Assembly (NCBI GenBank): GCA_963664665.2
Contig: CAXXMH010000001.1
Coordinates: forward strand, 55,824 to 119,823
Source: Pseudomonadales bacterium
GTDB lineage: Bacteria; Pseudomonadota; Gammaproteobacteria; Pseudomonadales; Azotimanducaceae
Direction: 5' to 3'
DNA: 64,000 bases
The translations under genes and the position numbers were made by a program. Below are positions 1,265 to 41,785 of the stretch, in pieces. Each line of letters begins with the position of its first letter. Position 1 is the first letter of the stretch. The notes under the pieces were generated by a model. That model had not been told where the DNA came from. It saw only the letters and a list, made by a program, of their open reading frames with translations, and did not search any database.

Positions 1265-1302
1265 CGATATCTGAATATAGAAAGCCGAGCTTTAGAACCG
1301 AT

Positions 1303-2904
1303 ATGTCAGAAACGGACCCTCTCGAACATGAGATTGCTTCGCGTCGAACGTTTGCCATCATCTCTCACCCGGATGCGGGTAAGACGACGGTGACGGAAAA
1401 GCTGCTGTTGTTGGGTAACGCGATACAGCTCGCCGGCGATGTTCGAGCAAAGAAGACAGGTCGACAGGCGCGCTCAGATTGGATGGCGATGGAAGCAGAG
1501 CGTGGCATCTCCGTGACGACTTCGGTCATGCAGTTTGAGTATCAGGATCGAGTTATCAACCTGCTGGACACGCCTGGTCACGAGGATTTTTCCGAAGATA
1601 CCTATCGAACGCTAACTGCTGTCGACTCTGCAATCATGGTGATCGATGCTGCAAAAGGCGTCGAAGACCGTACCAGGAAGTTGCTTGAGATTTGCAGGTC
1701 GCGAGACATGCCGATTCTCGCGTTCATTAACAAACTGGATCGCGAAGCGCTTTCGCCGATCGAGCTAATCGATCACATCGAAGATGAACTGGATATCGAA
1801 TGCGCGCCCATGACTTGGCCTGTTGGTTCTGGACGATCGTTCCGAGGTTGCTATCACCTGACCGAAGACACGTTCACCGAGTACGAACAAGGATTTGGCT
1901 CGTCCTTGCACCAATACCCGCGACATGGTTCATTAGATTCAGACGAGGTTCGTGAGTGGTTGGGGTCCGATTACGACGAGTTCGCAGAGGAACTCGAGTT
2001 AGTACGAGGTGCCAGTCATGAATTTGACGCCGACGCGTACTTGTCGGGAGCACGCGCTCCCGTTTATTTCGGTTCTGCGCTACAGAACTTCGGGATCGAT
2101 CACTTGCTTGATCAATTTATCGCGATCGCGCCTGCACCAAGGCGACGCCTAACGCTGAGTGAGGCGGTTGATCCTTCGAATCCGGATTTCTCTGGCTTCG
2201 TCTTCAAGATTCAAGCGAATATGAATCCGAAGCATCGTGATCGCATCGCGTTTCTCAGAGTGTGCTCTGGTCAATATCGAAAAGGCATGCGCATGCGCCA
2301 CGTGCGACTCGGTAGAGATGTCAAGATAGCGAATGCATTGACATTTATGGCAGGAGAGCGCAAACAGACTGAAGAAGCATTCCCAGGGGACATCATCGGG
2401 CTGCATAACCACGGCACCATTCGAATTGGTGATTCGTTTACAGAAGGTGAACCGATCGCTTTTCGAGGCATTCCGAATTTCGCGCCAGAGTTGTTTCGTC
2501 GAGTAAGGGTCAAGGACCCAACCAAAGCAAAACGTCTAGCTCAAGGCGTCCGACAGCTTTCAGAGGAAGGCGCTACTCAGGTATTCGTGCCACTAAATCG
2601 AAATGAGATCATCATCGGAGCGATTGGGACGTTGCAATTCGACGTTGTTGCCTTCCGCCTAGAGCAGGAATACGGGGCGGAATGTGTTTACGAAAACAGC
2701 GATATCTATACGGTGCGGTGGGTCTACGCAGACGACGAGAGTCGACTCGACGCTTTCCGCTCAAGAGCGAATGCGCAGTTGGCGTTAGACGGTGATGATC
2801 AGCTGGTCTTACTCGCGACATCGCGAGCCAACCTTCAGCTCACTCAGGAACGCTGGGAAGATATCACGTTTAGAGATACGCGCGAGCATGCACTCGCGGA
2901 ATAA
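1303..2904 (+). CDS. prfC: Peptide chain release factor 3 (GTPase)
   Basis: 533 aa. It has the translational GTPase motifs [20 protein letters not shown] and NKLD, and a full-length RF3-like layout. Confidence 0.95.
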
Positions 2905-3028
2905 ACTCCTTGAAGTGGAATATCGCGACCGCGACAACGAGTTCAAATAGGTATATCTACGAGGTGCGTAGAGTCTCTAGTGTTTTGCGTGTATTTTGGT
3001 ACGAATCTCTCGATTAGGATCGGGTACC

Positions 3029-3088
3029 CGCCTAATTCGGAATGGCGGTGCGACTGATTCGGAATGAGCCCCCGACTAATTCGGAATT
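3029..3088. repeat. Three direct repeats with an exact 22-bp period; core ATTCGGAAT (interrupted palindrome ATTC-N-GAAT)
   Basis: The repeats are CGCCTAATTCGGAATG at 3029, CGACTGATTCGGAATG at 3051 and CGACTAATTCGGAATT at 3073. They lie in the 259-bp spacer between the convergent 3' ends of prfC and selB. Confidence 0.8.
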
Positions 3089-3163
3089 TGAATGGATAGA
3101 AGGCGTCTCGGTTGATCTTCGAGGAGGGAAGAACATTACGTAACCGTTTTCTCTTCTTTCGAG

Positions 3164-5050
3164 CTATTCGCTGTTCGATTCATTGACTTTAAGTAGAACG
3201 CGAACTTCGCTTTGCCGCTGAGTTACGCGCTGTCGGTCGAAATATTCGAGCACATCTATAACGGTGTTCCGACCTAGACCACTTGCATCGCGAAACTCGC
3301 GAACGGTGAATGGTTTGTTGGTTGCAAGTTCCGAAGCGATGTTCTGCAATTCTCCTATGCGTTCTGGCGTGAGATACCGGTTGTTGTTGACTCGAACGAG
3401 TGCTCCGGCTGCGACCATTGGTCGCATTGCTTTTTCAATTTCGTTAAAGGGTTTGCGCAGTCTTTTTGCGACGTCACCGAGCGAGACCGGTTGTTCCGCA
3501 TCGAACATAGGCCTTACCGTGTCGAAGAGCGCCGTGTCATACGAGGGTCCTTCCGCTTCATGTGTGACCAGCGCGTATTGCCCAGCAATGTGACGTAATG
3601 TTTGGCGCTTTAGCAATTGATCGAGAGTGAACTGAACGGCGTTCGAATAAGTTGGCGTCTCGCGTTCAAGTTGCGAGACGGTCATTCCTTCTTGTGTGGG
3701 ATGTGCATCGTGGAATGCGCTAAGCGTGTTGGTGATGCTTTGAACTATCTCGTCAAAAGCACCGATGCCGATTGCCGATCCATCCGCGTGTACAACGCGG
3801 TCGCTCTCCAGAAACTCTCTTATGTCTTCTTGTGTACACAGCGTGAAGCGCGTGAACTCGTCGACCGAGACTAAACCGCGAGACGTGTAGTTCTTTAAAG
3901 CTTTCGTGCGTCCGTTTGCGTCGATCGAGCTTCTAAGCGAATCCAGGAACGACAGATTCGTCTTTGATCGGCGCCTGTTGTGCGTCTCTTGAGAGTACGC
4001 CAAGATGGTCGCACCACCGAGCGTGCAGGATAGATCACGATCACGTAGGATCAATCGATCTCCAGCCTTGAAATGCATAGCATCGTCGCAATGCAGTTCA
4101 GCAAGCGTCCTAGCACCTGGCTCGGCGACACTTCCTTCAAGCAGCGCCAGACGCGCTTCGGTGTGATCGGTCAAGTGGTATATGTGCACGGAAGACCAGT
4201 GTTTGAGGTTCCGCGGAAAGTCGTCAAGCATCGAAAGATCAATGGACACCTGGTTGATCGGAAGGACGTGTTCCAAGGAGAGCAACCAATCGCCGCGCTG
4301 AGCTTCGTTTGCGTCTGAACCGGCAATATTCAGGCTACAGCGATCACCCACACATGCAGTCTTCGCATCGAGTCCTTGTACGTTTAGGTTCCGAATGCGG
4401 ACTCGATCTCCGATCGCCGTGAGATGGACTTCATCGCCTACGCGCACTTCGCCTGACGTGACGGTACCTGTGACGACTGTCCCGACGCCGCGTAGATTGA
4501 ACGAACGATCGATGGCTAGACGGAAAGGTCGAGCGCTCTCCGTCGAGTCAAACGTTTGTGCGATTTCGACGAGGTGAGTTCGCAACGCTTCGATGCCGTC
4601 ATTAGTCGGTGCGACGACTTCAAACACCTTCGCGTCGCGAAGAAAGCAATCGCTCTTGAATTGGTTAATTGCGACGCGGCATTCACGCAAGCGGTCCGCA
4701 GATACCAAGTCAACCTTGTTGAGCACGATGGTCCCCGACTGAACTCCGATAAGCTCAAGGATTTGAGCATGCTCGATGGTTTGCGGCATGATGCTGTCAT
4801 CTGCGGCGATGACAAGCAAGGCATGTTGTTGATTTGCGACACCGGCAATCATGTTGTGTATGAAGCGATGGTGCCCGGGCACGTCGACAAATCCAATGCG
4901 CTGTGAATCTATCGTCGTGTACGCAAAACCTAAATCAATCGTCAAACCACGTGCTTGTTCTTCCTTTAATCGATCGGTGTTGACGCCCGTGAGAGCTTGA
5001 ACGATCGCGGTTTTGCCATGATCGACATGACCCGCAAGCGTGATGATCAC
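3164..5050 (-). CDS. selB: Selenocysteine-specific translation elongation factor
   Basis: 628 aa. It has an EF-Tu-like G domain (GHVDHGKT, DVPGH, NKVD) followed by a long C-terminal extension typical of SelB. The GTG start overlaps the selA stop (GTGA at 5047-5050). Confidence 0.9.
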   Translation of the reverse strand: MIITLAGHVDHGKTAIVQALTGVNTDRLKEEQARGLTIDLGFAYTTIDSQRIGFVDVPGHHRFIHNMIAGVANQQHALLVIAADDSIMPQTIEHAQILELIGVQSGTIVLNKVDLVSADRLRECRVAINQFKSDCFLRDAKVFEVVAPTNDGIEALRTHLVEIAQTFDSTESARPFRLAIDRSFNLRGVGTVVTGTVTSGEVRVGDEVHLTAIGDRVRIRNLNVQGLDAKTACVGDRCSLNIAGSDANEAQRGDWLLSLEHVLPINQVSIDLSMLDDFPRNLKHWSSVHIYHLTDHTEARLALLEGSVAEPGARTLAELHCDDAMHFKAGDRLILRDRDLSCTLGGATILAYSQETHNRRRSKTNLSFLDSLRSSIDANGRTKALKNYTSRGLVSVDEFTRFTLCTQEDIREFLESDRVVHADGSAIGIGAFDEIVQSITNTLSAFHDAHPTQEGMTVSQLERETPTYSNAVQFTLDQLLKRQTLRHIAGQYALVTHEAEGPSYDTALFDTVRPMFDAEQPVSLGDVAKRLRKPFNEIEKAMRPMVAAGALVRVNNNRYLTPERIGELQNIASELATNKPFTVREFRDASGLGRNTVIDVLEYFDRQRVTQRQSEVRVLLKVNESNSE

Positions 5051-6438
5051 GTTAACGAGTCAAGATTGGCGATGAAATCCTCGAGTGGTTCTGCACCTCG
5101 CGTATCAAGATAGATAGCGCCTTTAAACAAGCGGCCGATGACCGGTGTTGGCGAATGTCGAAGACTCGCGAAGAGATCTTGTGTCGCTGAATTCGAAGGA
5201 CCTCTGAGGACGACGGCGATTGACGGTACGGTGTCGCCTGGCATGGCACCGCTACCGACTTCCGCTTCGCTCATTTCGATGTCGACCGAGAAGTCTTCTG
5301 GTAGGAGTTCGGCGAGGCGTGAGTGAATCAGCTTGGCGCGTGATTGGAGTTCGTTATTCGATATGCTGAGGGTGCGTAACGTTGGCACGTTGTTGCGGAC
5401 GTGTTCAGCGTCCTCATACGCTTTGAGTGTCTCATCGAGCAAAGCGAGTGTCAACTTCGAGGTCCGAAGTGCACGTTTCATCGGATTTGCATTGATCTTA
5501 TCAATCAGTTCGCGTGAGCCAACTAGCAAACCAGCTTGTGGACCACCTAGCAGCTTGTCACCGGAGAACGTCACCAAGTCTGCGCCGTCTTTTAACGCAT
5601 CGTTTGGCATTGGTTCGCGCGGCAACCCAAACTGGCTGGTATCGACTAATGCGCCGCTCCCAAGATCGACCACACACGGAATGTGATGTTCCGTCGCGAG
5701 CTCACTCAATGACTTTGTGCTCACTTCTTTGGTAAAGCCCTGAATGCGGTAGTTACTTGGGTGCACTTTGAGCAATAACGCGGGTTGGCTCGCGATTGCA
5801 CGTTCATAGTCACTGAGATGCGTACGGTTCGTGGTTCCGACTTCCACTAATTGGCATCCCGCGGCCTCCATGATTTCGGGCAAACGAAAACTGCCGCCGA
5901 TTTCTATGAGCTCGCCACGAGAGACGATGACGTTACGGTCTCGCGCCAGCGTATGCAACAGGATTAGGACCGCCGCAGCGTTGTTATTTACGATGGCGGC
6001 CGCTTCTGCGTTCACGAGTCGACATAGTCGCTCGCATACTGCTTCCTCGCGTTGGCCGCGACTTCCGGTACCCAAATCGAATTCAATCGATGCAGGCTGC
6101 GTGACAAGAGGCTTTACCCGTTCTAACATCGCTTCATCGATGCGTGCGCGGCCTAAATTCGTGTGAAGAATCGTGCCAGTCACGTTGAAAACGCGTTGAT
6201 AGCCACGTAGACGCTCAGTGGACAACCAGCGTTCGATTTCTTTTCGATAGAACGACTCTACCTCATCGTTGTCAACAGTCACTTCACCGGTGCGAAGGCG
6301 TGCCTGAATCGCGCGAATTGCTGCGCGGACAGATTCGCGACCCCAGGCTGCGACCACTTCCTCCAGAATAGGTGCACCAAGCAACCGATCGATTGAAGGA
6401 ATGGCTTGACGATTCTGGTTATCGTCGTCGCTGCTCAT
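5047..6438 (-). CDS. selA: L-seryl-tRNA(Sec) selenium transferase
   Basis: 463 aa. It carries the SelA-type PLP-lysine motif FSGDKLLGGPQAG and lies immediately upstream of selB, translationally coupled to it. Confidence 0.9.
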   Translation of the reverse strand: MSSDDDNQNRQAIPSIDRLLGAPILEEVVAAWGRESVRAAIRAIQARLRTGEVTVDNDEVESFYRKEIERWLSTERLRGYQRVFNVTGTILHTNLGRARIDEAMLERVKPLVTQPASIEFDLGTGSRGQREEAVCERLCRLVNAEAAAIVNNNAAAVLILLHTLARDRNVIVSRGELIEIGGSFRLPEIMEAAGCQLVEVGTTNRTHLSDYERAIASQPALLLKVHPSNYRIQGFTKEVSTKSLSELATEHHIPCVVDLGSGALVDTSQFGLPREPMPNDALKDGADLVTFSGDKLLGGPQAGLLVGSRELIDKINANPMKRALRTSKLTLALLDETLKAYEDAEHVRNNVPTLRTLSISNNELQSRAKLIHSRLAELLPEDFSVDIEMSEAEVGSGAMPGDTVPSIAVVLRGPSNSATQDLFASLRHSPTPVIGRLFKGAIYLDTRGAEPLEDFIANLDSLT

Positions 6439-34505: not shown

Positions 34506-34582
34506 CGGGACGTGGCGCAGTCTGGTAGCGCACGTGACTGGGGGTCACGTGGTCGCCGGTTCGAGTCCGGCCGTCCCGACCA
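34506..34582 (+). tRNA. tRNA-Pro, anticodon GGG
   Basis: I folded a 77-nt cloverleaf by hand. Acceptor stem CGGGACG/CGTCCCG, D stem GCGC/GCGC, anticodon stem CGTGA/TCACG with loop CT-GGG-GG, variable loop TGGTC, T arm GCCGG-TTCGAGT-CCGGC, discriminator A, and an encoded CCA. Confidence 0.92.
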
Positions 34583-36497
34583 CTTTCTCTTTTCTCGCCG
34601 TGAACTCGTAGTCATCTGGATTGAGTTCACGCATCTGGTGCCAGAACTCAACGAGCGATCCTGGCCAGTTCTGCGTGACGCGACCATTTGCATTTTTGTA
34701 CCACGCGTTCACTTTCGACGCACCCCACGCCATTTTCAGGCTTGACTCGTCGATTTTCTCGTTGTAACTCTCGAATGGATCCGGTTTACAGTCCATTGCG
34801 GTGTATCCATGCTTCAGCATATGACGCAGGCACTTGGATACGTAGTGCATCTCGCATTCAGAGAAGAAGATGATGCTACCGTTCACGACGATGTTTGTGT
34901 TCGGTCCGTATAGGCAGAAGAAGTTGGGATAGTTCGGCATGGTGACGCCAAGATAGGCGCGTGGATCTTCATTCCACATCTCGCGCAACTCGGTACCGTC
35001 GCGACCGTAGATACGCATTGGAAACAGAATCTTGCTCGCACTAAATCCGGTCCCATAAATGATGGCGTCGAAATCAAACTGCTCACCCGTCGACGTCCTC
35101 AATCCGGTCTCATTGACACATTCGATCTGGTCGTCGACAACGCGCACGTGATCTTGTTTCAACGCACGGTAATAGTGGCCGTTGTCGATCAACATACGTT
35201 TTGCCGCAGGTGGATACCAAGGTGTGAGCTTTTCGATCAAGTCCGGTCGCCCTTCTAGGTGGGTTTCGATGCCTTGTGTAAGGATTTCTCGCAGCTTTTG
35301 ATTCGCCGGACTTACCGACTGAATGTTGTCATTCCACGAATCGTCGCATCGTGCGAAAGAGAGTAGTCCTTCACCCGAGGTCCAGAACATGTGGAAGCGA
35401 AACCATGATTGATAGTAGGGGACTTGGTTGAGCAGCCAGTGCGTTTCATCGGTGATGTACTCGTGGTACACAGGATTCGTCGCGACCCAGGGTGGGGTTC
35501 GCATGAACACCTTTACATCTGCAGCTTCCTTCACGACTTCCGGCGTAAATTGAAATGCGGAGGCACCGGTACCGATGATGCCGACGCGTTTCCCTCCCAG
35601 CGGGATGGTGTGATCCCACTCAGCTGAATGGAACCAAGGTCCCTTGAAGTCTTCTATACCGTCAAGATCCGGCATCTTGGGCCGATTGAGTTGGCCAGTT
35701 GCGGCGATTACCGCATTTGCGACGGTCGTTTCAACACCGTTTGGTCCCTCAACCTTGATTTCCCAAGTTGAGGTGCCTTCATTGAAGCGTAGTTCTCGCA
35801 CTTCCGTTTCAAAACGGGTGTGTTCCCTCAGACCGTATTCATCTGCAGTCTCCTGGAAGTACCCCAGGAGCGCGTTCCGGTCGGAAAAATGCTGGGGCCA
35901 GTCCTTCGGTTTGAACGAGTATGAATAGACGTGATTCGGGCTATCGACTCGACATCCCGGATACCGGTTCTCGTACCAGGTTCCGCCTACATCAGCATTC
36001 TTCTCGAATATCGTGAAGTCGACACCCAACTCTTGCATTCGGATGCCAGCAAGCAAGCCAGACATACCGCCACCGACGATCGCAACATGGAAATTGCGCG
36101 TAACTGCCGGCTCTAGCGGAGGTTCTTCTTGTTTTGGCGCAATATTGAGTTCATCCAATGCGTACGGGATGTACTCGTTTGTGAGTTCGACACCCGCAAT
36201 GAAATTAATCATGTCGAGGAGTAGCGTTTCGTCGACGGGATGATCTTCGAACCCGTGGTCGCGACCGCGGATCAGCGTTTCTAAAGCCAATTCTTGAATT
36301 CGGGTCTCGATTTCTTCGGGGTAACCTGGCGGTGTACCACCGATCGTCATAGGCGCCGGTTTGATGGATTTATCTAAAAGTGTCGAATCACCTGTTAGAT
36401 GGACTAGAACGTTAATGAGCGACGGTAGATGGGCATGCTGAAGCGCCTGTTCAATTTCCTCGTCGCTGGCATTAATAACGCGAGAAAGCTCACTCAT
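34545..36497 (-). CDS. Baeyer-Villiger (flavin-containing) monooxygenase with an N-terminal extension of about 130 aa (HAPMO-like layout)
   Basis: 650 aa. It has the FAD motif VGGGMSGLLAG, GGTWYENRYPGCRVDSP, the BVMO fingerprint FKGPWFHSAEWDH, and the NADPH motif GIIGTGASA. The last 12 codons plus the stop are encoded on the antisense of tRNA-Pro. Confidence 0.85.
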   Translation of the reverse strand: MSELSRVINASDEEIEQALQHAHLPSLINVLVHLTGDSTLLDKSIKPAPMTIGGTPPGYPEEIETRIQELALETLIRGRDHGFEDHPVDETLLLDMINFIAGVELTNEYIPYALDELNIAPKQEEPPLEPAVTRNFHVAIVGGGMSGLLAGIRMQELGVDFTIFEKNADVGGTWYENRYPGCRVDSPNHVYSYSFKPKDWPQHFSDRNALLGYFQETADEYGLREHTRFETEVRELRFNEGTSTWEIKVEGPNGVETTVANAVIAATGQLNRPKMPDLDGIEDFKGPWFHSAEWDHTIPLGGKRVGIIGTGASAFQFTPEVVKEAADVKVFMRTPPWVATNPVYHEYITDETHWLLNQVPYYQSWFRFHMFWTSGEGLLSFARCDDSWNDNIQSVSPANQKLREILTQGIETHLEGRPDLIEKLTPWYPPAAKRMLIDNGHYYRALKQDHVRVVDDQIECVNETGLRTSTGEQFDFDAIIYGTGFSASKILFPMRIYGRDGTELREMWNEDPRAYLGVTMPNYPNFFCLYGPNTNIVVNGSIIFFSECEMHYVSKCLRHMLKHGYTAMDCKPDPFESYNEKIDESSLKMAWGASKVNAWYKNANGRVTQNWPGSLVEFWHQMRELNPDDYEFTARKEKVVGTAGLEPATT

Positions 36498-36615
36498 TTA
36501 CGCCGTCTTACACTGGATTGAACGAAGCGCGATTATAGGAAGTGATAGCTATTCTGATAGCCGTAAACCGCGAGCCGCCATGTGTGTTTTCCGAGTGAGT
36601 TGCTACCCAGTTCAT

Positions 36616-36708
36616 CGAATTTAGGACAAGCGCGAATTAGCGAATCAGACCTTACTCGCGATTCTCCGATTCGAGCGCGGAATATCGTCTTGGTATCACT
36701 CGAATTAG
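36616..36708. repeat. Cluster of CGAAT(T/C)AG octamers in the BVMO/methyltransferase divergent spacer
   Basis: CGAATTTAG at 36616, CGAATTAG at 36633, CGAATCAG at 36641 and CGAATTAG at 36701. The same octamers form the minus-strand reading of the 3029-3088 repeats. Confidence 0.4.
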
Positions 36709-37019
36709 ATTGCGGCCTAGTTGACTCTTGGGAGGAGGATCGGCACGTTACGTTCATCCATCACAGCAAAACCGAAAACGTGTCAAACCAAGATTGATCT
36801 AAACTAATTAGATGCTCGTTGTATGCTTGTGGCATGGTGTGCTTGTTAGTAACGGTACTTCGCATTAATCGGCTTGGTAAGACGTGCGTCAGGGAGCGAT
36901 ATTTGAACGCAAGTTTTTTAGATCCTGAACAGATGGAGATTGGTTTATTGAGCCAGGTCGAGGGTGGAATATAGCAGTGAATAGAAGCTACACCGACAGT
37001 GGTGTCGCGAAGGTGCGCG

Positions 37020-38819
37020 ATGCATAACTCTTATAACCTCGTGACACGACAATCACCTTCAGAGGGTCGCCAGACTACTCGGCAAGACTTAATTAAAAGT
37101 GTGACTCAAGATCTGCGCATTTCTTCGACCGCTGATTCCGATATAGAACTCAGGACCGCACGTTCAGTTGTATTCCTCGTTGTGCGCTCGTACTGGGAGA
37201 CTACAAGGAAGAACAACAACTGGCAATGGAGTTTGCGAAGAAGGCCGAGCCGCGTGGGGTTCATCGGCCAATCATCTGAAACTGCTGAATGGTGCGCCAA
37301 ATTTGGGAATTCCGCTGCGTATCTCGATCCATCTGAAGCAGCTTATCGTATTGGCGCGCTGTATACGTCGCTGATGCCGAAAGACTACAAGGTGAAATTA
37401 GGCGCGCACTATACACCACCAGCGTTATCGGAGGAGCTGCTCGAGATGGCAGCTGAGAACGGGGTCGACTGGGGTACGGCACGTATTTTGGATCCTGCTT
37501 GCGGTGGGGGTGCGTTTCTAGTTCCAATCGCTCGCCGTATGATCGCAATTCGCGACGCAGCTAGTGCAATCAATGTACTCGAGGACATTGAGCAAAGTCT
37601 AGTGGGCTACGAGTTAGACCCATTCGCGGCATGGTTATCGAAGGTTTTTTTGGATACGGTTTTCGGTGAATTGTGCTACAAAGCAGGTAGGCGTCATCGC
37701 TGTGATGTGGCCATATGTAACAGTCTTGAACGAAATCGAGATAAAGATGGCTTTGATCTTGTGATTGGTAACCCTCCGTACGGTCGAATACGGTTGCCTC
37801 AAAAACTCCGTGCTAAGTTCTCGCGTAGCCTGTTTGGTCATGCGAATCTATACGGTTTGTTTACGGACCAAGCATTAAGACTCACCCGTAAAGGTGGGTT
37901 GATCGCTTACGTTACACCGACGAGCTTTCTCTCAGGAGAATACTTCAAATCGTTGCGTGGTTTGCTCGCCGAAGAAGCCCCTCCTGTAAGTTTGGGGTTT
38001 GTGACTAAAAGGAAAGGCGTATTTGACGATGTTTTGCAAGAAACACTGTTGGCAATTTACAGGCGCACAAGTAATAAAACTGCGGGCGTGGTCCGCCTAA
38101 TCACGCCAAAAGCAAGCGGTGAAGTTGAATCAGTGTTCGCTGGTCGATTCGATCTGCCGGCTGATCCGAAAAGTCCTTGGTTGATTCCCCGAACTAAAAG
38201 ACATAGTGTGTTGTTGCGTCAGACCCGCGATCTGACATGTCGACTCTCCGACTTCGGCTACACCGTGAGCACAGGACCGTTTGTCTGGAACAGACACAAA
38301 CTCAACCTTCGAGCGCGTAGGAGTAGAGGTGCGTACCCCGTCATTTGGGCGGAAGCCATCCGCGCTGAGGGTAAGTTTGAGTTTCGAGCTTCGCAACGAA
38401 ATCACAAACCGTTTTTTAAACCACAACAGCATGAACAATGGGTGGTAACTGACTTCGATTGTGTCCTTCTTCATCGAACAACTGCGATTGAGCAAGATCG
38501 ACGCTTAATCGCTGCTGAGTTACCTAATTCGTTTATTGCCGAACATGGCGCTGTCGTCATAGAAAACCATCTAAATATGGTCAGATCGGTCGTTGAAATG
38601 CCAAAGATCTCGCCTAAAACACTAGCGGCGGTATTAAACAGTTCGGTGGTTGATCAACTGTTTCGTTGCATTAACGGAAGTGTCGCGGTGTCAGCATTCG
38701 AGTTAAAAGCTCTACCTTTGCCTTCACAGGAGGATATGGAAGCGATTGAGTACTTAGTTTCGAGTGGTGCTCAGCGCGAGTATGTAGAGCAAGCCTTGAT
38801 TCGTGCATTCGGAATTTAG
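37020..38819 (+). CDS. N6-adenine DNA methyltransferase, Eco57I/gamma-class type (R-M modification subunit)
   Basis: It has SAM motif I (ILDPACGGGAFLV), catalytic motif IV (VIGNPPYGR), GAHYTPP upstream of these, and a C-terminal region of about 230 aa that could be the target-recognition domain. I prefer the ATG at 37020 (AAGGTG 4 nt upstream) over the listed GTG at 36999. The first ~100 aa look atypical, so the start is uncertain. Confidence 0.85.
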   Translation: MHNSYNLVTRQSPSEGRQTTRQDLIKSVTQDLRISSTADSDIELRTARSVVFLVVRSYWETTRKNNNWQWSLRRRPSRVGFIGQSSETAEWCAKFGNSAAYLDPSEAAYRIGALYTSLMPKDYKVKLGAHYTPPALSEELLEMAAENGVDWGTARILDPACGGGAFLVPIARRMIAIRDAASAINVLEDIEQSLVGYELDPFAAWLSKVFLDTVFGELCYKAGRRHRCDVAICNSLERNRDKDGFDLVIGNPPYGRIRLPQKLRAKFSRSLFGHANLYGLFTDQALRLTRKGGLIAYVTPTSFLSGEYFKSLRGLLAEEAPPVSLGFVTKRKGVFDDVLQETLLAIYRRTSNKTAGVVRLITPKASGEVESVFAGRFDLPADPKSPWLIPRTKRHSVLLRQTRDLTCRLSDFGYTVSTGPFVWNRHKLNLRARRSRGAYPVIWAEAIRAEGKFEFRASQRNHKPFFKPQQHEQWVVTDFDCVLLHRTTAIEQDRRLIAAELPNSFIAEHGAVVIENHLNMVRSVVEMPKISPKTLAAVLNSSVVDQLFRCINGSVAVSAFELKALPLPSQEDMEAIEYLVSSGAQREYVEQALIRAFGI

Positions 38820-38825
38820 ACAGTA

Positions 38826-39917
38826 GTGTCTTTACCACGGCTTCTTCCAGTACCCGAAATTCGGCAGCGGTTGCAAACGATATTTCCAGAAGGTATTGAG
38901 AATCGAACATACGTTACTCGCGAAATGGCGGCGAAGACCGTATTCGTCATGCTCTATGTGGGCGCAGTAGAAGGTGGGGAACGATGGGTACGACCGGATC
39001 AGATCACACGAATGAGTGATGCGCAAGCTCAACTAGAGAGCCAAATTGAACGGGAGGAATGGGCTTTAACTTCGCTACTCGCTAATGTAGGAGCTATTGA
39101 AGGTCGTTGGTACGCTGCGAACACGAGAGAACCGATCAGAGATGAGACTCTTCGAGCAGGATTAGTTAAATTCGGCGCCGTTACGGAACGCAAGGATCTT
39201 CCCACCACGTCGCCGAGGCCAAGATACGCTTTAGCACGAGGCTTCGCTGTCCTATTTAGTCCTGAGCTGGACGAGGCTGTATTTCAATCGGCGGTCACGG
39301 ATTGGCGCGCTTCAAACTTGTCAAGAAGCGCATTAATGCGCACTACGCTGATGCTTCGAGGCTCAGTTGAACAAGGAGACCGAATACTCGTGACGTTTCC
39401 GGATGGAGAGACGCGCCACATGGAACCTGGACCGAGTTCGGTAATTTCGAAGGCGGTGGTTGAGGAGTTTGCGCCTAGGTTTCTTGAACAACCTGCTGTT
39501 ATCTGGTTGAGCGAGAGCAAGAGTCGTGTGGTCACTCGTGATGACGATCTAGCACAGCAGATTGGGTTAACGATTCATCCGGATCGTAATCTTCCAGACC
39601 TCATTTTGGTAGATCTTGGTCCACCGACGCCATTGCTGTTATTTGTGGAGATCGTTGCTACATCGGGTGAGATTAACGAAGTACGGAGGTCAGCTTTGAT
39701 GAAAGTAGCGACAGACGCTGGATTTGGTTCCGATCAAGTGACTTTTGTGACTGCATATCAAGACAGAGACTCTCGACCTCTGAAGGCGACGTTTGGCAGT
39801 CTTGCGTGGGGTTCATTTGCTTGGTTTATGACGGAACCGGATCAGATAGTGTTCTTTCACCGTCAAGACTCTGACGTTAACGTCTATTTAAGTAGCTTTG
39901 TCGAGCAAAGTCATTAA
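38826..39917 (+). CDS. Type II restriction endonuclease, BsuBI/PstI-like (tentative family assignment)
   Basis: 363 aa. It starts 6 nt after the methyltransferase stop. The N-terminal pattern RLQTIFPEG..NRTYVTREMAAKTVFVMLYVGAVEG and the C-terminal PDLILVD...LLLFVEIVATSGEI...FVTAYQDR...LAWGSFAW match my memory of BsuBI/PstI-family enzymes. No search was run. Confidence 0.6.
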   Translation: MSLPRLLPVPEIRQRLQTIFPEGIENRTYVTREMAAKTVFVMLYVGAVEGGERWVRPDQITRMSDAQAQLESQIEREEWALTSLLANVGAIEGRWYAANTREPIRDETLRAGLVKFGAVTERKDLPTTSPRPRYALARGFAVLFSPELDEAVFQSAVTDWRASNLSRSALMRTTLMLRGSVEQGDRILVTFPDGETRHMEPGPSSVISKAVVEEFAPRFLEQPAVIWLSESKSRVVTRDDDLAQQIGLTIHPDRNLPDLILVDLGPPTPLLLFVEIVATSGEINEVRRSALMKVATDAGFGSDQVTFVTAYQDRDSRPLKATFGSLAWGSFAWFMTEPDQIVFFHRQDSDVNVYLSSFVEQSH

Positions 39918-39977
39918 TTAGTCCTAAAACTTGGTTTCCAGAGCGATTGAGGACTTCTCACGCCACTAACATAACAC

Positions 39978-40004
39978 TCGACAAATATACATGTATATTA
40001 TAAT
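39978..40004 (+). promoter_or_regulatory. Candidate promoter of the TIR gene with an overlapping 14-bp perfect palindrome
   Basis: TCGACA (39978-39983), then a 15-nt spacer, then TATAAT (39999-40004). The spacer is almost entirely the palindrome ATATACATGTATAT (39985-39998). The spacer is shorter than the optimal 17 nt. Confidence 0.3.
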
Positions 40005-40053
40005 TCAGCCTAATTAAAGGCGTATTTCGATTAATGATGGTAAAGGAAATGTC

Positions 40054-41514
40054 GTGAATATTGAAAATGGTGGCGTAAATCCAAAGGCATAAATCAGCTA
40101 TAGTTGGAGTTCTCAAGAACATCAAGAGCTTGTTAGGTCGTGGGCCGATCGTCTAATCAATAATGGCGTTGACGTGGTGCTAGATCAATACGACCTTGAA
40201 CCAGGTGACGACACCTATAAATTCATGGAAAGGATGGTTGCGGACTCAACCGTGTCCCACGTTTTAGTCGTGTGTGACAAAGAGTACGCAGACAAAGCAA
40301 ATGCACGACGAGCAGGTGTTGGCGTAGAGTCGCAGATCATCTCTAAGGAAATTTATGAAGGTGTAGAGCAATCGAAGTTCATTCCAATCGTTACAGAGTT
40401 TAGTTCTGACGGTAAAGCAATCCTGCCTGTATTTATGAGCTCGCGCTTCTGGATCGACTTTTCATCCAATGAGAAGGTGAGGGACTCATGGGAGAGTCTG
40501 ATCCGCGTTCTGTACGACCGTCCACGTCTCGTTAAACCCAAACTAGGTGCAATACCGAAGTACTTAGATGAGGATTCAGTCGAAAACAATAGTGTGATTC
40601 GCGAAAAATTAGAAGTTTTCCGGTCAGCGGTGAAAGCGCGAAATCCAGATATTGCGAACCATAGAGCAGGCCTAATTGCTTCGTGTGTCGAATTTGCAGA
40701 TGGGATGAGAGTCAAGGTACCTTTAACTATAAGTGATCAAGATCTCGGCAGTAAAGTAGTGAACGATTGCAAGCAATTGGTGGCGTCTCGAGATGGACTA
40801 TTAGATTGGCTACTTTTCGACCTCGGCGCAGGTGATCAAAGCGTCGAATCTGCCACATTGACAGATGTGCTCGAGAAGTTATTAGAGCTTAAGGCGCGAC
40901 CTGAGGAATTAGGAGCTTGGAGTGATAAATGGTTCGGGGCACATTCAGTATTCGTCTACGAGTCATTTCTGTACATTGTTGCAGCGTTAATTCGATTTAA
41001 GCGTGCTGATCTTCTTCGATCAATATTCGAGTTCAGCTACCTATTGCCGCCAACGGATCGTGGAGCCGAAGACTTCGGTCGATTTGATCGATTCTGGGGT
41101 CGTTCGGAAGTTCTTTCGGTCGTTCTTCAAACTCCAGACGGTAGAAATTACTTTAGTACAGAGGCGGAGTTGATCAAACGTCAGGCTACGAGAACTGATC
41201 TATCTTTCAATGAAATAATGGAAGCAGAACTCCTGGTTTTTTTAGCTAGCTTGACCGACAACGTTTGTCAGTGGTATCCGGGTACGCTTCACTATGCAGA
41301 ATATAGTTGGGTGTCGCCATTTTTTCTGAGAGCAACTCGCCATTCAGATTTCGAGCTGCTAGCGAGAATCGTGAGGATTGAGAACGCCGACGAATTGCGC
41401 ACGCGAGTGAGAGAACGTTTTGACACAATGAATAGTAATCTCATGGGCAATTTTCGGATGCAAGGAAGCCCCTTCTGGTCCATGATGAATCTTAAAAATC
41501 TCGATACTCTTTAG
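40054..41514 (+). pseudogene. TIR-domain protein with an uncharacterised C-terminal domain of about 330 aa; the native frame is interrupted by an in-frame TAA at 40090-40092
   Basis: The GTG at 40054 has AAGGA 6 nt upstream and reads VNIENGGVNPKA-TAA-ISYSWSSQEHQELVRSWADRLINNGVDVVLDQYDLEPGDD, in frame with the listed ORF 40174-41514. ISYSW..(D/E)H..WV and the GVGVES segment (which retains the conserved Glu) are typical of bacterial TIR/SEFIR-like domains. Confidence 0.7.
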
Positions 41515-41785
41515 TCCACGTATATCGAACTTTCAATTTGTTTTGTGGGCATGCACTTGCGCCACTTACTTCACTCGGCTCATTTCATAGTCAGCGGAGG
41601 TGGGGCACTCAATAAGATTCGCTACATTCACGTCGTAGTAATACCATGTGGTTAATAGAATTGCGCGCATTTGATCGACACACTTAACCAAGGCGTCGGG
41701 GTCTGTCATGACAGGCACGAGATTCGTATTAACGACGCCAGTTTGATTCCAACGTAATTTCGTCCTCTATTTGTAGGAGCATTCC

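Follow-up and report, generated by a model that had tools for sequence, protein, structure and literature searches.

Organization of the gene

We analysed a stretch of 64,000 nucleotides, hereafter the window, from a Pseudomonadales bacterium (contig CAXXMH010000001.1), and this report concerns a gene on its forward strand that encodes an N-terminal domain of the TIR superfamily followed by a C-terminal region of about 330 residues. An earlier note, made from the sequence alone, had put this gene forward as a candidate for a new single-gene TIR defence protein. The gene and its parts are listed here with positions in the window:

40054..41514, forward strand: full bSEFIR frame as translated, from the GTG start to the TAG stop, comprising the SEFIR domain, the linker and the all-alpha C-terminal domain
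40043..40056, forward strand: likely native translation start as read from the sequence, an AAGGA-type Shine-Dalgarno sequence, a 6-nt spacer and GTG 40054
40054..40524, forward strand: SEFIR (TIR-superfamily) domain, predicted NADase effector of the family (Pfam, PDB match, homologue model)
40090..40092, forward strand: nonsense TAA at codon 13 of the translation, where the closest homologues have Tyr (PKAYISYSW) and most of the family has Phe
40534..40566, forward strand: linker motif KPxLGxxPxYL between the domains, conserved across homologues, with a predicted local distance difference test score (pLDDT) below 50
40525..41511, forward strand: C-terminal all-alpha domain of 329 residues, presumed sensor or regulatory module, without a named-domain match (AlphaFold2, hhalign)
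40174..41514, forward strand: open reading frame (ORF) as listed and deposited, 446 aa, from the first in-frame start past the TAA (ORF list; P0001, 446 aa in NCBI/ENA)

The N-terminal domain is, by sequence comparison, a SEFIR domain, so that the term TIR domain used in the earlier note holds at the level of the superfamily and not for the family itself. The best match among PDB sequences was BcSEFIR of Bacillus cereus F65185 (5Y8E, E 2.7e-31, 112 bits, residues 10-162), whereas the best TIR entry reached only E 0.016 and 17 bits. In addition, the AlphaFold model of an intact homologue (P0002) superposed on 5Y8F with a TMt of 0.89 and a root-mean-square deviation of 2.0 Å, while TIR domains gave TMt values of at most 0.72, those of SPARTA and MyD88 following distantly after BcSEFIR. 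In Pfam, both TIR_2 (52.7 bits, 7.5e-14) and SEFIR (50.4 bits, 3.8e-13) matched above their thresholds. BcSEFIR (5Y8E/5Y8F) matches the N-terminal domain only, and its crystal constructs end at the linker (…EEPLLKPP). The eukaryotic SEFIR proteins (interleukin-17 receptors, Act1/TRAF3IP2) belong to the same Pfam family and gave weak matches (9OT1, 3VBC), but they are signalling adaptors of other architectures and their likeness to the window domain is far below that of bacterial SEFIR.

The TIR-like part ends in ...LIRVLYDRP (...SWESLIRVLYDRP), and 329 residues then run to the stop codon at 41512-41514. The earlier note had thus counted well, and the four segments it quoted all lie in the translation of the 446-aa ORF; the region it delimited, 40523-41514, exists, although its start is 2 nt out of frame, residue 118 beginning at 40525. 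It had also recognised no known signature there, and our searches agree with this, since the 329 residues had no Pfam match at E<=1, no NCBIfam model matched the protein, and no match among PDB sequences was obtained with the region alone or as a profile (the profile gave only a chance match, E=2). The structural check that it had recommended gave a confident all-alpha model, AlphaFold2 with a 113-sequence alignment returning a mean pLDDT of 92.3, a predicted TM-score (pTM) of 0.91, about 15 helices and almost no strand. Foldseek found nothing significant for this model in the PDB (best E 0.025, TM 0.2-0.33), including no APAZ, STING or NTPase match, and no match in BFVD. The likeness to helical repeats among these hits (designed helical repeats and 14-3-3 proteins, TM 0.2-0.33) was rejected as generic.

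The model of the full-length protein (pLDDT 88.7, pTM 0.68), in which residues 159-174 fall below a pLDDT of 50, indicates two predicted rigid domains on a flexible tether. In the linker motif, the residues P, G and P do not vary among 98-113 homologues.

The C-terminal region recurs widely in this arrangement. With the 329 residues as query, 202 homologues were found at E<=1e-3, nearly all of about 477-500 aa and with SEFIR or TIR_2 at the N-terminus, and a profile of the C-terminal domain only (A2) matched 1211 of 1.84 billion cluster representatives at E<=1e-3 and 732 at E<=1e-10. These numbers mark the region as genuine coding sequence rather than a chance ORF. In nearly all the full-length profile matches the C-terminal domain begins at residue ~145-160. 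Eight distant full-length representatives were spot-checked, of which seven had a SEFIR N-terminal domain and one (P0238) TIR_2 only, and one of the eight carried an extra N-terminal extension of ~150 aa; two short representatives that were also checked consisted of the C-terminal domain only. No alternative effector fused to the C-terminal domain was seen among the representatives spot-checked. Additionally, mean pairwise identity is 71% in the SEFIR domain and 54% in the C-terminal domain, as expected for an effector that is paired with a sensor.

Relationship to the bSEFIR family

A single-protein SEFIR anti-phage system has been described by Millman et al. 2022 (bioRxiv 10.1101/2022.05.11.491447), who selected proteins in which the SEFIR match was stronger than the TIR match. 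Their SEFIR protein defends against phi29, the D40A substitution abolishes this defence, and homologues were found in 460 genomes of more than 20 phyla, with enrichment in defence islands (10.1101/2022.05.11.491447). This system was missing from the list of known TIR systems in the earlier note, which had stated that its proposal would be refuted if the C-terminal domain mapped confidently to an already described defence family. The domain does map to one. With the nonsense codon repaired, the window protein matched the PADLOC profile bSEFIR (PDLC03957) with E 1.8e-87 and 292.8 bits over residues 5-483 (profile 37-382 of 412), and this profile also matched the C-terminal 329 aa alone (E 4.2e-10).

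Furthermore, BLASTP against the verified SEFIR protein of Bacillus sp. NIO-1130 (IMG 2616229772) gave 31% identity over 404 residues (E 5e-57), in an alignment that is colinear through both domains, from ISYSW to WFPVTYHH/WYPGTLHY, and that reaches the last recovered residue of the Bacillus sequence. This sequence comes from the supplementary table of Millman 2022 and 399 of its 468 residues were recovered, to which all our comparisons with it are limited. A search for the full-length Bacillus protein with the BcSEFIR domain as query returned only 16 short fragments and was abandoned as a source. By hhalign, the C-terminal half of the Bacillus protein aligned to the profile of the C-terminal domain only with a probability of 92% and E 6.5e-7 over 232 columns. 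The two proteins have the same order of two domains (468 aa against 486 in the window frame) and share the conserved linker (KPALGKVPSYL in Bacillus, KPKLGAIPKYL in the window) and the organization as a single gene with no fixed partner. D40 of the Bacillus protein corresponds to D44 of the window copy (repaired numbering, VDVVLDQYDL), which is retained there and is invariant in 98 homologues. PHROGs also holds an entry for the same two-domain protein (phrog_11745, colinear match E 3.1e-118), with function unknown.

Known TIR systems use partners, and the earlier note was right that no ThsA, pAgo, STING or NLR-type partner lies within 5 kb, as a Pfam and PADLOC scan of the neighbours found none. 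In this regard, no Thoeris, SPARTA, CBASS TIR-STING or TIR-NLR (Avs-like) module was matched by Pfam or PADLOC in the protein or within 5 kb. A partner gene does not appear to be obligatory, as the neighbours vary between loci and the restriction-modification (R-M) pair next to the gene, here and in three related genomes (L063-L065), is a separate system.

By homology, then, the uncharacterised 330-aa domain is the regular C-terminal domain of the known single-gene anti-phage family bSEFIR. It is uncharacterised but not new, since standard defence-annotation profiles already recognise the gene, and of the earlier proposal the notion of a single-gene defence protein of the TIR superfamily stands while that of novelty does not. 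Taking the data together, it is very probable that the 329 residues form the C-terminal half of a bSEFIR protein, that the mechanism of the family applies to them, and that the window copy is most likely a recently inactivated pseudogene in a variable defence islet.

Several observations weigh against this reading and have to be set beside it. The experimental data are limited to the Bacillus protein, which lies outside the clade of the window protein and is only ~21% identical to it in the C-terminal domain, and we found no paper in the searchable literature that describes the bSEFIR C-terminal domain or its role as a sensor. Pfam alone scores TIR_2 marginally over SEFIR, the TAA codon has been seen in one deposited contig only, and housekeeping genes are frequent among the neighbours of the homologous genes. 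In addition, most of the polar residues that are invariant within the clade (e.g. R204, R219, R221, R246, R282 and K375-R376-Q377, in P0002 numbering) are not conserved in the Bacillus protein, which suggests that the trigger may differ between them.

Interruption of the reading frame

The frame 40054..41514 comprises 486 codons including one internal stop, and tblastn with an intact homologue (P0047) aligned query residues 7-480 to 40081-41511 with exactly one stop. The upstream part translates as MNIENGGVNPKA*ISYSWSSQEHQELV..., where the star is TAA 40090-40092. At this position the two closest homologues (P0002 and P0003, with C-terminal domains 61% and 59% identical to that of the window copy) read ...KPKAYISYSWSSQQHQELV... 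with a Tyr codon, and the consensus of the family is PKVFISYSW. Judging from this alignment, the TAA stands for a Tyr codon (TAY to TAA) in the predicted first beta-strand of the TIR-like fold. The native start is likely GTG 40054 with its Shine-Dalgarno sequence; from this codon to the Tyr/stop position there are 12 codons, an equal count to that in both close homologues. The gene was listed and deposited as 446 aa because the next in-frame start after the TAA is GTG 40174. A product translated from there would be missing strand A, helix A and the first part of strand B of SEFIR, and would keep about three quarters of this domain. A scan for promoters and terminators gave a result no better than shuffled sequence.

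Elsewhere the gene is mostly intact, as 53 of 56 species-representative loci were uninterrupted when searched by tblastn with an intact homologue. An uninterrupted frame is expected of a bSEFIR gene, and the window copy lacks it. The stop aside, it keeps 140 of the 155 positions with a conservation of 90% or more among 98 full-length homologues, and this retention of near-invariant residues points either to a recent inactivation or to a stop that is a sequencing error. The SEFIR gene is disrupted independently in other genomes: in L061 a TAG (5866-5868; P0004) has taken the place of Tyr in the ISYSW strand (FVS*SW), within a few codons of the stop position in the window, in L045 a Trp is changed to a stop at about residue 143, and L048 carries frameshifts and a stop. 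These cases suggest that the NADase gene has been lost recurrently.

A rival reading is that TAA 40090 stems from faulty sequencing or assembly or belongs to a minority allele, in which case a functional bSEFIR protein of 486 aa would be encoded here. The well-kept residues fit this explanation, as do the lack of any frameshift, the good GTG start with its Shine-Dalgarno sequence, the intact syntenic orthologues and the origin of the sequence from one contig. On the other hand, the deposited annotation likewise starts at the downstream GTG, the separate disruptions in L061, L045 and L048 indicate that loss is common, and two metagenome DNA scans found no second allele of the stop-codon region, nor was a near-identical intact allele found among the homologues. 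We consider an error unlikely and the window copy most likely a recently inactivated pseudogene, its nonsense codon making the bSEFIR system at this locus most likely inactive.

Alternatively, the product from GTG 40174 could be made and serve a separate purpose, such as that of a decoy or regulator that consists of the C-terminal domain and has no NADase activity. There are ORFs of this domain only elsewhere, one of them (in L004) directly downstream of a full-length SEFIR gene, and several representatives of 300-375 aa span the C-terminal domain only, some of them on megabase contigs. However, we saw no Shine-Dalgarno-like sequence upstream of GTG 40174 on reading the sequence and hence no evident ribosome-binding site, a SEFIR domain reduced to about three quarters and without its first strand and helix would probably misfold, and of the short homologues P0006 is a gene-calling artefact and P0004 a nonsense pseudogene. 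Such a functional short product is very improbable, and a dead gene remains the preferred account of the window copy. The ORF in L004 (11269-12219) encodes 317 aa and is ~50% identical to residues 169-453 of P0047. We also considered N-terminal truncation as a recurrent event behind many homologues of ~450 aa, and dropped it as at least one case (P0006) is an artefact of start-codon calling.

Proposed mechanism and comparison with other systems

For the NAD+ step of the mechanism proposed here we follow published work on the protein of Bacillus sp. NIO-1130. Depletion of NAD+ by the N-terminal SEFIR domain of the system has been reported, and so has phage counter-defence by NARP1 (10.1101/2024.02.11.579819). 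In intact members, the N-terminal SEFIR domain would hydrolyse NAD+ to ADP-ribose and nicotinamide after phage infection, and the loss of NAD+ would starve the phage and arrest the cell. The all-alpha C-terminal domain of ~315 residues, tied on by the KPxLGxxPxYL linker, most likely keeps SEFIR inactive until a cue of infection is detected, which would then permit the SEFIR-SEFIR assembly needed for catalysis. This sensing or autoinhibitory role is suggested by the exclusive fusion of the domain to SEFIR, its C-terminal place in the domain order, its greater variability, the analogy with DSR1/DSR2 and the lack of a catalytic-family signature. The sensor or oligomerisation module envisaged in the earlier note is plausible, but it would be a feature of the known family as a whole and no discovery at this locus. 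In the window copy, the change from TAY to TAA at codon 13 would leave only the restart product from GTG 40174, devoid of the first SEFIR strand and helix.

The C-terminal domain contains a deep set of residues that are invariant within the clade (P0002 numbering), namely R204, R219, R221, R246, D251-W252, K280/R282/E285, W289, W293 and E303, and further K375-R376-Q377, R380, D382, W407-Y408-P409 and Y414. This polar and aromatic set fits a conserved small-molecule or nucleic-acid signal better than a variable phage protein, and we tentatively raise the possibility, on balance doubtful, that the domain forms a pocket that senses a metabolite or nucleic acid, which would make bSEFIR an NADase that detects a metabolite by itself, as one protein, through a new sensor fold. 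If true, small-molecule sensing would be a property of the bSEFIR family and not of the broken copy in the window. Most of the clade-specific invariant polar residues are not shared by the Bacillus sp. NIO-1130 protein, and the window gene differs from it further in its host, a Gram-negative marine Pseudomonadales-type organism and not Bacillus, and in its premature stop.

SPARTA, Thoeris and TIR-STING are reported to have NAD+ hydrolysis as their output. SPARTA (TIR-APAZ), Thoeris ThsB and TIR-STING share the superfamily fold with the window domain, the SPARTA TIR coming next after BcSEFIR with E ~4e-4, but they use a separate partner or another fused sensor (pAgo, ThsA, STING), none of which is present at the window locus. 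The likeness to DSR1/DSR2 is a functional analogy only: each combines an NADase at the N-terminus and an alpha-helical sensor at the C-terminus in one polypeptide (10.1101/2024.02.11.579819), yet DSR1/DSR2 have a SIR2 effector fold and far larger sensors, and Foldseek finds no significant likeness in the PDB for the bSEFIR C-terminal domain.

The window locus itself has little significance, as the gene is known to standard profiles and this copy is probably dead. For the C-terminal domain of bSEFIR there is neither a Pfam family nor a structural neighbour among solved or viral proteins, yet it folds confidently in prediction and is found in more than 1000 sequence clusters, which makes it a well-defined target for asking what SEFIR senses.

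The island and the same site in related genomes

The gene lies in a small island of low GC content together with a pair of R-M genes:

36498..41735, strand not assigned: low-GC variable island of ~5.3 kb with the R-M pair and SEFIR, between FMO-type oxidoreductase and SDR genes
36999..38819, forward strand: Type II N6-adenine DNA methyltransferase of Eco57I-type fold (Pfam Eco57I 2.9e-17, N6_Mtase; PADLOC MTase_II 2.6e-225)
38826..39917, forward strand: BsuBI/PstI-family Type II restriction endonuclease (Pfam BsuBI_PstI_RE 5.6e-41, N-domain 4.7e-30; PADLOC REase_II 4.1e-119)

At third codon positions the GC content is lower in the island (0.44-0.47) than in the flanks (0.48-0.59). The genes within 5 kb are those for the methyltransferase, the restriction enzyme, the FMO-type oxidoreductase, SDR, two DsbA proteins and a HEAT-repeat protein, and the position beside an R-M system, on which the earlier note had relied, is confirmed by the Type II methyltransferase and the BsuBI/PstI endonuclease. 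The Type II pair looks complete and the endonuclease begins 7 bp after the methyltransferase; the exact 606-aa translation of the latter has no entry in the protein collection, where its start was probably placed at another codon. We found neither an integrase nor a transposase, nor direct or inverted repeats in the flanks, that would define the island.

In close relatives (L057-L060, ~92% nucleotide identity) only 161 bp separate the FMO-type oxidoreductase and SDR genes, and the alignment of these relatives to the window is lost at 36439 and regained at 41736. This empty site shows the R-M pair and SEFIR to be an insert of ~5.3 kb. More distant relatives (L063-L065, with flank proteins 80-93% identical) have at the same site DUF4268, methyltransferase, BsuBI/PstI endonuclease and an intact SEFIR gene of 487/488 aa in synteny, and their island proteins are only 64-73% identical to those of the window, i.e. 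they diverge faster than the flanks. No remnant of DUF4268 was found in the window. The FMO-SDR site is accordingly found in three states, which are empty, with DUF4268, R-M pair and intact SEFIR, and, in the window, with R-M pair and nonsense SEFIR but no DUF4268. From these comparisons the locus is a variable, apparently fast-evolving defence islet in a fixed intergenic site, and the series at one site illustrates the gain, divergence and decay of such an islet in marine Pseudomonadales-type genomes. In L063 the FMO-type oxidoreductase is split into ORFs of 376 and 272 aa (1290-3231), compared with a single 650-aa gene in the window and the other relatives.

Beyond this site, the neighbour families that recurred most at the loci of 17 other species were ResIII, DEAD, Methylase_S, DDE transposase, N6_Mtase and HSDR_N. 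The scan covered 135 ORFs and top families only and gives no proper enrichment statistic, and its result is consistent with the published enrichment in defence islands, being weaker evidence than that. A full-length gene for SEFIR and the C-terminal domain is also carried by Klebsiella phage ST15-OXA48phi14.1 (L066, NC_049454.1 9305-10738), annotated as 'TIR domain-containing protein'. In this P2-like temperate phage it is flanked by the replication (nicking) gene and the portal gene. We take this position in P2-like phages to be a known spot for variable anti-phage cargo. Plasmid copies occur in Pseudomonas luteola and Clostridium perfringens, where they are annotated as SEFIR proteins.

These locations bear on whether the protein is immune at all, since it could be a general scaffold for SEFIR-mediated interaction or signalling. 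Yang et al. 2018 had put this idea forward for BcSEFIR, according to the summary given in 10.1101/2022.05.11.491447, and the housekeeping neighbours at many homologous loci would suit it. However, a family member gives phage defence that a point mutation of the conserved Asp abolishes (10.1101/2022.05.11.491447), NAD+ depletion and the NARP1 counter-defence have been reported (10.1101/2024.02.11.579819), the window gene shares a strain-variable island with an R-M system, and homologues are found on plasmids and at the cargo hotspot of a P2-like prophage. A scaffold role thus seems the least credible of the alternatives, with hardly any probability left to it, and we retain bSEFIR as an anti-phage family.

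The flanking proteins are identical or near-identical to proteins deposited as 'MAG: Pseudomonadales bacterium', where the accessions of the FMO-type oxidoreductase and SDR are consecutive. A tRNA-Pro(GGG) gene (34506-34582, forward strand) was considered as the island junction and rejected, as it lies ~2 kb away. It shares ~38 bases with the end of the 650-aa FMO-type ORF (34545..36497, reverse strand), and this overlap appears native, since the length of 650 aa is conserved in relatives.

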